In this document: positions 1,868 to 3,320 of the stretch, piece by piece
Layout: each line of letters starts with the position of its first letter
Position numbering within the stretch: the stretch's first letter is position 1
DNA from: a virus
Lineage: Duplodnaviria > Heunggongvirae > Uroviricota > Caudoviricetes
Virus record (IMG/VR): IMGVR_UViG_2579779049_000014
Coordinates: 1-22,295 of that record
DNA length: 22,295 nt
Direction: 5' to 3' (one strand)
Notes under the pieces: model-generated
What the model saw: the letters and a program-made list of their open reading frames with translations, nothing else
The model's database searches: none
What the model was told of the DNA's origin: nothing
Position numbers and translations under genes: made by a program

Positions 1868-1904
1868 CCAGTGGCCTGAAGAAACGTTTGGGTGAGGAGG
1901 ATAG

Positions 1905-2246
1905 ATGGCGTTCACTGACCTTGAATATCAAGCGGTCAAAAAAGAAGTTCACCAATTCATTGAAAGCATAAGGCCGCCTGAACATATCCGCAATGAACTG
2001 GATATTGTTTATAGCATCAATGACCAAACGATAGATATCGGCGAACAGCGCCCCGTGTGGCAGGGCAACCCAGGTGAAACAAACATCCTGCCATCAGCAA
2101 GAATCAAGTACATACGTTCTCTGGATAGATGGAAAATCTATTGGATGCGGAAGGATATGAAATGGCATCAGTACAGTACTGAACTTTCGCTGACTGATGC
2201 GCTTGAGCTTGTGCGTGCTGACCCGGATTGCTGCTTCTTCGGATGA
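1905..2246 (+). CDS. Hypothetical protein co-transcribed with cI (rexA position)
   Basis: 113-aa ORF starting 38 nt after the cI stop with a GAGGAGG Shine-Dalgarno 6 nt upstream; no family recognised with confidence. Confidence 0.6.
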   Translation: MAFTDLEYQAVKKEVHQFIESIRPPEHIRNELDIVYSINDQTIDIGEQRPVWQGNPGETNILPSARIKYIRSLDRWKIYWMRKDMKWHQYSTELSLTDALELVRADPDCCFFG

Positions 2247-2408
2247 GTGAAGAGACATTTGGGTGATGGATGGTCGCAGAAGTGCGGCTTTTAATGTAAT
2301 CGAAGAAAAGTAATCCTTGTAAAACTTGATTTGACTGTATTGTCACAAAGAAAGGAATCAACGATCGTTTCTTGGGTCTTGATTTGTTTTGACGATCAAA
2401 TTAGTATT

Positions 2409-2435
2409 GCCTCATCAACTGTATGAGGCTTTTTT
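2409..2435 (+). terminator. Intrinsic terminator-like hairpin abutting the next start codon
   Basis: GCCTCAT-CAACTGT-ATGAGGC stem-loop followed by TTTTTT, ending one base before the ATG at 2436. Confidence 0.5.
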
Positions 2436-2969
2436 ATGCAAACCAAAAGCTACACCATCAAAGCATTTCAGGACTTCTTACAGATGCTTCCTGAGCTTGG
2501 TATCGTCAATGATGCTACAGCCCGCAATCTCCGTGACTCTTCCCTGCGCCTTCTTACTGTTCTTGGGTCGGATTTCACCGATGCCGATATCCGTGATTAT
2601 AGCGTTGCCAACTTAGCAAGTTCGTACGCAGACTCAGCAGAAAGCAAACCCTCTGAATCATCTTTGCAGGCATACAAAAGCCGGATGCAAAGTGCTATTG
2701 ATAAATTTATCTCCTACCAGAATGGTGAGATTAATGTGTCAGTTGGTGATGTAAATAAAAAAAAGGAGCGTAAAAAGATGGCACCTAAGAAGAAGGCGGT
2801 AGCTGACGTACAGGTTGGTGTAAAAACATTTGAACTGCCGATTCCATTGCGCGGAGATCTTATCGTCACCATTGGCAACCTGCCTCGCGACCTGACAAAA
2901 GATGAAGCCAAGCGTATCAGTCTGATTGTGGAATCTTTTGCGATGATTGATGGCGGAACAAAAGAATAA
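2436..2969 (+). CDS. Hypothetical protein with a central lysine-rich linker (rexB position)
   Basis: 177-aa ORF; N-terminal domain, basic tract KKKERKKMAPKKKA, C-terminal domain; a strong terminator follows. Its only Shine-Dalgarno (GAGG) lies inside the upstream hairpin. Confidence 0.55.
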   Translation: MQTKSYTIKAFQDFLQMLPELGIVNDATARNLRDSSLRLLTVLGSDFTDADIRDYSVANLASSYADSAESKPSESSLQAYKSRMQSAIDKFISYQNGEINVSVGDVNKKKERKKMAPKKKAVADVQVGVKTFELPIPLRGDLIVTIGNLPRDLTKDEAKRISLIVESFAMIDGGTKE

Positions 2970-2970
2970 A

Positions 2971-2993
2971 GCCCCGAGGGAACGGGGCTTTTT
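2971..2993 (+). terminator. Rho-independent terminator
   Basis: GCCCCG-AGGGAA-CGGGGC followed by TTTTT, immediately after the stop at 2969. Confidence 0.8.
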
Positions 2994-3142
2994 GGGTCGG
3001 AAATATATCCAGTATTTCCGAAGTGTATGGAGGATTACCTACCGCTACACCCTTGGCAACCGCAAGCCAAGGATAGCGGTTCTCCCAACAAACTACAACC
3101 TGTTCGGGTAAACAGGCTGTATACAAAAACAGGAGAAAAGCT

Positions 3143-3277
3143 ATGGCTCACGATGTTAATCGCGATGACTTCATCTACGAACACGACAAGCCGGTTTATG
3201 TGCGCAGTTACTGCCGCATACGTTTCGGTGAGCTCGAACATGTTCGTCAGCACTTCCGCTCTTATCCGAGCTGCTGA
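3143..3277 (+). CDS. Small basic protein (44 aa), hypothetical
   Basis: ATG at 3143 with AGGAGAA 5 nt upstream; MAHDVNRDDFIYEHDKPVYVRSYCRIRFGELEHVRQHFRSYPSC; followed by a terminator. Below the track's size cutoff. Confidence 0.35.
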   Translation: MAHDVNRDDFIYEHDKPVYVRSYCRIRFGELEHVRQHFRSYPSC

Positions 3278-3293
3278 AAATAACTAAATCTCA

Positions 3294-3320
3294 AACCCGG
3301 CCACCGAGCCGGGTTTTCTT
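3294..3320 (+). terminator. Rho-independent terminator
   Basis: CCCGGC-CACCGA-GCCGGG followed by TTTTCTT. Confidence 0.65.

Follow-up and report, generated by a model that had tools for sequence, protein, structure and literature searches.

The window analysed here, the whole 22,295-nt stretch of IMG/VR virus record IMGVR_UViG_2579779049_000014 (Caudoviricetes) from a Shiga-toxin phage, carries two unrelated modules between the phage repressor gene cI and the left operator OL. Module 1 (1868-2290) contains ORF1, a gene of the DUF3024 family, and module 2 (approximately 2379-3316) contains ORF2, a structured RNA and the very small ORF3. All three open reading frames (ORFs) lie on the + strand exactly where a first-pass annotation of this DNA had placed them (ORF1, 1905-2246, 113 amino acids (aa); ORF2, 2436-2969, 177 aa; ORF3, 3143-3277, 44 aa). 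That annotation had treated them as one cassette linked to cI. The locus thus falls into DUF3024, a candidate already on record, and a stretch of about 940 bp (2379-3316) without a characterised relative. We regard the gap between cI and OL as a cargo hotspot occupied by two mobile modules, and module 2 as an exclusion or addiction element that would be expressed in the lysogen; this explanation, taken as a whole, is given an even chance of being correct.

The first-pass annotation had described the site as one where exclusion or defence genes reside, and the cargo found there is highly varied. In other E. coli prophages with essentially the same cI allele, the slot contains DUF3024 with PDC-M24-like genes, DUF3024 with a diverged Sakai-type ORF2 module, a gene for a 98-aa hypothetical protein, or one for an SDH Clp-fold protease. 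In other lambdoid phages BstA or a Stk-type (PD-T4-6-like) kinase occupies the same position. Such varied cargo beside essentially the same cI identifies the slot as a cargo hotspot, and the locus in the window is repressor-proximal prophage cargo.

Independent distribution of ORF1 and ORF2-ORF3

The two modules differ strongly in their distribution. DNA matching 1868-2290 is present in 227 of the 5,426 complete E. coli genomes searched, where ORF1 occurs with or without ORF2 and ORF3, whereas DNA matching 2300-3320 was found in only 6. DUF3024 genes were also detected in 144 phage records, directly behind several cI alleles (933W, P27, P22-like SE1). They occur without ORF2 in 933W, in STEC299 and at the ends of Erwinia and Rahnella prophages. 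Conversely, ORF2 homologues lack a DUF3024 neighbour in Yersinia prophages and in satellite-like islands. In phages of the VT2-Sakai type, the DUF3024 gene is broken into two frameshifted pieces while the ORF2-type gene is kept. Together with the 19-nt repeat that flanks ORF1 (see below), these patterns indicate that the modules are independent, and the single cassette of the first-pass annotation has to be abandoned. A single defence operon of ORF1 to ORF3, linked to cI, driven from pRM and analogous to rexAB, is therefore very improbable. The three ORFs do share the orientation of cI within the rex slot, only 37 nt separate ORF1 from cI, and the complete set of three is present in 6 E. coli genomes and in 3 phage records. 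However, the unequal distributions, the contexts that hold one part alone, the frameshifted DUF3024 beside an intact ORF2-type module and the two hairpins between ORF1 and ORF2, one of which has a U6 tail, largely rule out a three-gene operon.

ORF1 itself is readily classified. The first-pass annotation had recognised the families of neither ORF1 nor ORF2 and had proposed profile and PADLOC searches for all three proteins; these left ORF2 and ORF3 without a match in Pfam, NCBIfam or PADLOC v2, but assigned ORF1 to DUF3024 (PF11225; 108.7 bits against a cut-off of 24.9; E=2.4e-31; residues 4-113 of 113) and to PADLOC PDC-S43 (E=7.2e-42; residues 1-113 of 113). ORF1 also matches phrog_3467. By sequence, it thus belongs to a recognised family and is an already listed, computationally predicted defence candidate. 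In the papers searched, DUF3024 was found solely in a transcriptome table, with no function described, and PDC-S43 solely in a list of predicted systems, with no anti-phage test found. None of the three proteins is present in the DefensePredictor supplements, and a literature search with locus tags and accession numbers returned nothing relevant. The AlphaFold2 (AF2) model of ORF1 (predicted local distance difference test (pLDDT) score 89) has a helix, five strands and a helix. This small alpha+beta fold has no catalytic signatures, and the protein most likely acts by binding another protein. Such a partner could belong to the repressor or SOS circuit or be a neighbouring effector, for example RecA or a kinase, so that ORF1 would be a modulator and not a defence gene. 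At the ends of the Erwinia and Rahnella prophages the DUF3024 gene adjoins DinI paralogues, and in Erwinia, as in 933W, a 153-aa gene and a Stk-type kinase gene come next. We consider the modulator role unlikely.

The cI-ORF1 junction (1868-1904) contains the Shine-Dalgarno sequence GAGGAGG (1893-1899). The first-pass annotation had proposed a coupling of ORF1 to cI from this sequence and the short gap, which is 37 nt and not the 38 nt first counted. A transcriptome table for phage 933W, in which cI, DUF3024, a RuvC-like gene and stk change together (PMC10789677), is consistent with ORF1 being a downstream cistron of cI, and the DUF3024 protein would be read from pRM/pRE. The junction also holds the first copy of a 19-nt repeat, TGAAGAAACGTTTGGGTGA (1877-1895). 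A second, 89% identical copy (2248-2266; repeat family D4) directly follows the ORF1 stop codon, and the two form a direct repeat that brackets ORF1, with the motif TGAAGA(A/G)AC(G/A)TTTGGGTGA. Prophages that differ in their cI allele and in their cargo have one copy of this motif at the end of cI or immediately behind it, and in Erwinia a single copy immediately follows DUF3024 (motif loci include L002, L003, L012, L014, L072 and L076). The repeat is a plausible recombination boundary for cassette exchange, and module 1 may be gained and lost by recombination between its copies. A terminator-like hairpin (2272-2289) closes module 1 on the + strand. It is weak, with two G-U pairs in its 7-bp stem and only three U in the following UUUAAUG.

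In VT2-Sakai (L012, 3184-3342) and related Stx2 phages, the seemingly empty 500-nt gap between cI and orf22 contains the two-piece DUF3024 gene, which carries a frameshift, is 83% identical and has no annotation in several records.

ORF2, a structured RNA and ORF3 as one conserved unit

The first-pass annotation had overlooked both the RNA between ORF2 and ORF3 and the linkage of these two genes. In all distinct loci examined except that of Yersinia phage YP3, an ORF of 40-57 aa starts 152-205 nt after the stop codon of the ORF2-family gene, on the same strand. Genes of 40-57 aa belong to a size class that gene callers frequently skip. The same arrangement is found with ORF2-family members that are only about 25-35% identical and reside in other contexts. 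ORF2, spacer and ORF3 thus constitute one conserved unit, as the small ORF recurs behind ORF2-family genes in lambdoid prophages, in satellite-like islands and in a tail operon.

The contexts of this unit are diverse. A scan of the genome collection returned only 3 loci. Homologues with about 39% identity to ORF2 occupy the slot between cI and N in VT2-Sakai, related Shiga toxin (Stx) phages and Salmonella phage Oslo. In Yersinia prophages, they are found in the same slot with four different cI/cro pairs, and once behind BstA. In the latter prophage (L008, 3899-4829), cI is separated from the ORF2 homologue by a BstA homologue with KilA-N and BstA_C domains (PADLOC BstA, 1.5e-20) and by a 43-aa ORF, and thus two accessory modules are stacked in one slot there too. 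Enterobacter and related islands (L004-L007, L016, L059-L068) encode an integrase, an AlpA-type helix-turn-helix protein, DUF4222, AAA_25, capsid, protease, portal and head-completion proteins, and judged by this gene content they look like capsid-forming phage-inducible islands. In the Enterobacter islands, the ORF2 homologue directly follows the replication-type AAA_25 gene, which is presumably pri. An uncultured phage carries the ORF2 module as an antisense insertion inside its tail operon. The copy in YP3 (L013, 4031-4230), in which a 73%-identical ORF2 adjoins gin, retains the P1 part of the spacer before the sequence diverges and has no ORF3-type gene; it looks like a truncated module beside the gin invertase.

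The spacer itself folds into a structured RNA (2993-3142, 150 nt, + strand). Its parts are the stem-loops P1 (2997-3021), P2 (approximately 3029-3086, with pairing of 3042-3047 to 3074-3079 and of 3051-3057 to 3066-3072) and P3 (approximately 3094-3121), followed by the Shine-Dalgarno sequence AGGAG (3131-3135) of ORF3. The minimum free energy (MFE) z-score of 2996-3150 is -5.7. Diverged spacers that were folded independently have the same layout: hairpin P1 comes first, P2 is long and interrupted and has AUAGCGGUU conserved in its 3' strand, and hairpin P3 precedes the Shine-Dalgarno sequence. A single MAFFT alignment over all spacer types gave no usable consensus, and a one-type seed with covariance-model alignment was used instead. 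The resulting model, R1, was built from seven satellite-type sequences only. It matches the window at 2993-3148 on the + strand (50 bits, E=3.5e-12) and at no other site. In the R1 alignment of 13 distinct sequences, 91.7% of the cells pair, 21 of the 37 pairs have changed on both sides, and all nine pairs of P1 covary. Compensatory cells number 63 versus 17.8 +/- 3.2 in shuffles, none of which reached 63 (0/500), and slid registers pair in only 35-45% of the cells. The cells include 20 G-U but only 2 A-C pairs, which indicates an RNA read from the + strand and disfavours a structure in DNA or on the - strand. In type B spacers P2 and P3 fold in a comparable way, and the spacer of a distant member folds with a z-score of -3.3.

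This element matches no family in an Rfam search of the window (E<=1), which recovered sok, the cIII thermoregulator and two chance snoRNA matches elsewhere. A known RNA, a tRNA-like element and a repeat array were rejected as explanations of the spacer, for which neither Rfam nor ARAGORN nor TRF gave a match. A covariation-supported RNA without an Rfam counterpart would be a new RNA motif. In the MFE fold of the window, UAGCGGUUCUCC pairs with GGAGAAAAGCUA. A general role of the spacer as an anti-Shine-Dalgarno switch was not adopted, as occlusion of the ribosome-binding site (RBS) is modest in the window subtype, and types B and C show none. The RNA may instead serve as a site of processing or as a platform for binding, or it may have a function of its own.

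ORF3 is a basic protein of 44 aa that matches phrog_21154 (1.9e-31). Differences among relatives fall mostly on third codon positions (first/second/third: 116/144/535 in type A, 100/70/591 in type B and 2/0/32 in type C), and this dominance identifies ORF3 as a real gene under strong purifying selection. A spurious ORF3, or a real gene in one of the overlapping ORFs of 86 aa (+ strand) or 72 aa (- strand), was ruled out because the ORF3 frame alone is conserved and its changes concentrate on the third position. In one group of relatives (L040-L042), identity is higher for the small ORF (84-91%) than for ORF2 (45%). A protein search with ORF3 retrieved three clusters only. At least three sequence types of the small ORF exist: type A, as in the window and with Sakai-type and L069 variants; type B, of 57 aa; and type C, which has a CxxC...CxC pattern and is weakly treble-clef-like. 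They share an Arg-rich strand-turn-strand pattern, from which we infer that the types are homologous to each other.

ORF2 (177 aa) has an integrase-type core-binding (SAM-like) fold in residues 1-100, followed by a Lys-rich linker that is disordered and, at the C-terminus, by a highly conserved domain of about 45 aa. The two-domain layout with a Lys-rich linker that had been read from the bare translation is thus seen again in the AF2 model, in which residues 1-100 form four helices (pLDDT ~90) and residues 103-132 are disordered (<50). The N-terminal part is the four-helix, SAM-like core-binding domain of tyrosine recombinases, and 9 of 67 diverse family members weakly match the Phage_int_SAM models of Pfam. 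The catalytic R-H-R-Y domain was not found in ORF2, which has no Phage_integrase match and only about 45 residues after the linker. Conservation within the family is highest in this C-terminal segment (KTFELPIPLRGDLIVTIGNLPRDLTKDEAKRIS...), which has no match in Pfam or PDB. In the favoured explanation, ORF2 would be a nucleic-acid-binding-type protein that is made from a tyrosine-recombinase core-binding domain and itself lacks the catalytic domain. The family is large. A word-indexed search yielded 53 clusters, all from Enterobacterales and all labelled "hypothetical", and an exhaustive profile search (E<=1e-3) yielded 1,123 representative clusters at 50% identity. Nearly all have 160-200 aa, match end to end and share the same architecture. 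Informative domain fusions were sought, and the longer members contain no Pfam domain.

Relation to known systems in the repressor-proximal slot

In lambda, rexA-rexB lies between cI and OL. The first-pass annotation had assigned the ORFs of the window to this position, and they are indeed flanked by cI (1160-1867) on one side and by OL/pL and then N on the other, with the same orientation as cI. The gap between cI and OL is the equivalent of the rexAB slot, and expression with cI in the lysogen, as for rexA-rexB, would be expected of genes placed and oriented in this way. The contents of the slot are different. No RexA- or RexB-like sequence or domain was found in the three proteins (Pfam, NCBIfam, PADLOC). 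In place of one gene pair the window contains two independent modules, and the second brings, besides ORF2, its own promoter-like element, a folded RNA and a protein of 44 aa. Prophage defence genes that adjoin the repressor are also known from experiment, namely BstA of phage BTP1 and Stk of 933W (PD-T4-6). In a Yersinia prophage, this slot contains a BstA homologue upstream of an ORF2 homologue, and Stk-type kinases follow DUF3024 in 933W and Erwinia, but the proteins of the window have no KilA-N, BstA_C or kinase domain. The match to PDC-S43/DUF3024 is end to end for ORF1, and ORF2 and ORF3 are outside PDC-S43.

Other comparisons concern module 2 alone. For ORF2, the nearest comparison is with the core-binding domain of tyrosine recombinases and with the recombinase-like repressors MrpR and SroF. 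ORF2 differs from these proteins in having a 45-aa C-terminal domain instead of a catalytic domain, and it does not adjoin an attachment (att) site or integrase gene. ToxIN, a type III toxin-antitoxin (TA) system, is similar in that an RNA element and a hairpin lie between two components on a mobile carrier. However, no tandem RNA repeats (1868-3440) and no ToxN-like protein were found, the components come in another order, and three stem-loops make up one single RNA element. Module 2 thus resembles rexAB, BstA and Stk in location only, recombinases in one domain only and ToxIN in the logic of its layout only. A further parallel in position is Tai (tail assembly inhibition) of phage-inducible chromosomal island (PICI) satellites, which occupies an accessory hotspot next to pri (He et al. 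2024, PMC11364771), as the ORF2 module does next to the presumed pri of satellite-like islands. Tai consists of one protein, whereas an RNA and a microprotein accompany ORF2. A tblastn search with ORF2 against 50,697 phage records gave 50 matches, and phi80, the Tai prototype (TaiEcA, orf63), is not among the 40 of these matches listed.

Predicted expression of module 2

Terminator-like sites are enriched in the window (10 versus 2.4 +/- 1.5 in shuffles), and those on the + strand of the locus are at 2272-2289, 2409-2429, 2968-2991 and 3293-3316. The first-pass annotation had given each ORF a strong terminator of its own. Terminator-like sites are present behind all three ORFs, but the strength is confirmed only in part: the site after ORF1 is weak, and the intrinsic terminator that closes module 2 upstream of OL (3293-3316) is strong. 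The GC-rich hairpin directly after the ORF2 stop codon (2968-2991) is strong and terminator-like on both strands in the window. It is kept in all relatives, where type B lacks the U-tract.

Upstream of ORF2, a putative + strand promoter (2379-2407) consists of TTGATT, a spacer of 17 nt and TAGTAT. It was read by eye below the scan threshold and has 8 of 12 matches. Yersinia relatives have TTGATT-17-TACCAT at the aligned place. Next comes a hairpin with a U6 tail (2409-2429, + strand) that ends at the ORF2 start codon and holds the GAGG of ORF2 in its 3' arm. In Yersinia, the pairing of this hairpin is kept despite changed outer bases. Transcripts that read through from pRM would terminate here, and module 2 would be insulated from them. 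A transcript starting a few bases downstream of the promoter-like element would begin inside the hairpin. It would then lack the 5' arm, and the GAGG of ORF2 would be free. Module 2 may thus be an autonomous unit of a weak promoter, ORF2, the three-stem-loop RNA and the 44-aa ORF3, in which the hairpin behind ORF2, together with the structured RNA, would hold the output of ORF3 well below that of ORF2.

Function of module 2

The analysis establishes the anatomy of the locus, its modularity and the structure of the RNA; from position and anatomy we infer how the locus is expressed, what ORF2 and ORF3 do and any activity against phages. In the favoured model, ORF2 would be an abundant regulator or neutraliser and ORF3 a tightly limited effector. 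ORF3 would act when the supply of ORF2 is lost or when ORF2 is engaged by nucleic acid of an incoming phage. A role in exclusion or addiction is favoured by the location in a cargo hotspot, by movement between unrelated elements, by the presence in an immunity hotspot of satellites, and by the logic of an abundant first and a restricted second product. The stretch of PICIs that adjoins pri has been published as such an immunity hotspot (PMC11364771).

A serious rival, although in our judgement a rather unlikely one, is that module 2 is a developmental regulator of its carrier, for example a factor that binds DNA or RNA and, with a small basic co-factor, adjusts lysogeny, induction or late expression. 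However, module 2 is dispensable and patchy (the 6 E. coli genomes mentioned above), other cargo is found beside the same cI, and one copy is inserted antisense in a tail operon. Its patchiness and the tail-operon insertion fit a moron better than a core regulator. Alternatively, module 2 could be a pure TA-like addiction module that stabilises the prophage or satellite, with ORF3 as toxin and ORF2, the RNA or both as antidote, and would then have no anti-phage role. With the first component before a hairpin and the second behind it, the first product would be in excess. Such an excess of the upstream component through a hairpin is the layout of ToxIN. The stronger conservation of ORF3 compared to ORF2 and the movement of module 2 as a unit between mobile elements point in the same direction. 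On the other hand, no known toxin or antitoxin domain was found (Pfam, NCBIfam), the RNA has no tandem repeats, and no antisense promoter was detected at the scan threshold. ORF3 is hydrophilic, unlike type I toxins. For a type III system, no toxin match was obtained in PADLOC or Pfam, and for a type II system ORF2 and ORF3 are separated by a 173-nt structured spacer, with no TA domain in Pfam or NCBIfam. We regard pure addiction as decidedly unlikely.

Several observations weigh against the exclusion or addiction reading and the anatomy proposed for it. Neither ORF2 nor ORF3 matches a PADLOC v2 system. The C-terminal domain of ORF2 (~45 residues) is modelled at low confidence in AF2, and the putative ORF2 promoter is the eye-read element with 8 of 12 matches. 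The covariation counts derive from an alignment that was fitted to the model structure, and R1 does not detect the spacers of type B, of Sakai type or of distant members. Accessibility of the ORF3 RBS is only about 1.5 standard deviations below the control in the window subtype, and in types B and C it is no different. Finally, the types of the ORF2 N-domain, the C-domain, the RNA and the small ORF recombine freely. A specific contact of ORF2 with ORF3 or with the RNA was sought in the co-variation of types and none was found; with such free recombination no specific contact can be deduced.

A more far-reaching proposal, which we put forward tentatively and hold to be clearly less probable than the favoured explanation, is that ORF2, the RNA and ORF3 form an undescribed, widespread three-component system for phage exclusion or abortive infection. 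It would be a portable moron of lambdoid prophages, capsid-encoding satellite-like islands and other phages, and the RNA would be a functional partner rather than a mere leader. The repressor-proximal slot of lambdoid prophages has already given RexAB, Stk and BstA, and VT2-Sakai is among the major Stx phages that have an ORF2 homologue there. An effect of either module on superinfection or induction, if there is one, would matter for the spread of Stx phages and for toxin release.

Flanking genes and source of the window

The gene order is cII, cro, cI, ORF1, ORF2, ORF3, OL/pL, N. On the - strand are cII (421-717) and cro (824-1069). The + strand encodes cI (1160-1867; HTH_3 and Peptidase_S24) and N (3725-4066; N_peptide). 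The right edge of the slot is fixed by the OL operators (3432-3526, + strand), which have operator-like repeats in common with OR (1081-1123), and by a pL-like promoter at 3497-3525. Over positions 1100-3600 the window is 100% identical to the Stx1-converting Escherichia phage SH2026Stx1, a Traversvirus, and equally to prophages of four complete E. coli genomes, and ORF1, ORF2 and ORF3 are annotated coding sequences in RefSeq records with this identity. For the whole window, the match to SH2026Stx1 is confined to 458-4746, at 99.6%, and the window differs from this phage left of 458. In SH2026Stx1, annotated transposase genes begin just beyond the end of the match. The adjoining part of the window (4747-5244) comprises about 500 bp with a 156-aa ORF (4765-5235) that are absent at the equivalent place in E. 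coli 2014C-3061.

Directly 3' of N, a + strand gene (4078-4701) bears the RefSeq E. coli label Nmad5 family putative nucleotide modification protein. A full-length match to the lambda cIII thermoregulator RNA element (5414-5472, + strand; 88.5 bits) overlaps the start of a cIII-like ORF. Farther downstream, the full-length Rfam match to the sok antitoxin RNA (10660-10834, + strand; 113.5 bits, E=1.7e-25) implies that the phage carries a type I toxin-antitoxin locus of the hok/sok type.

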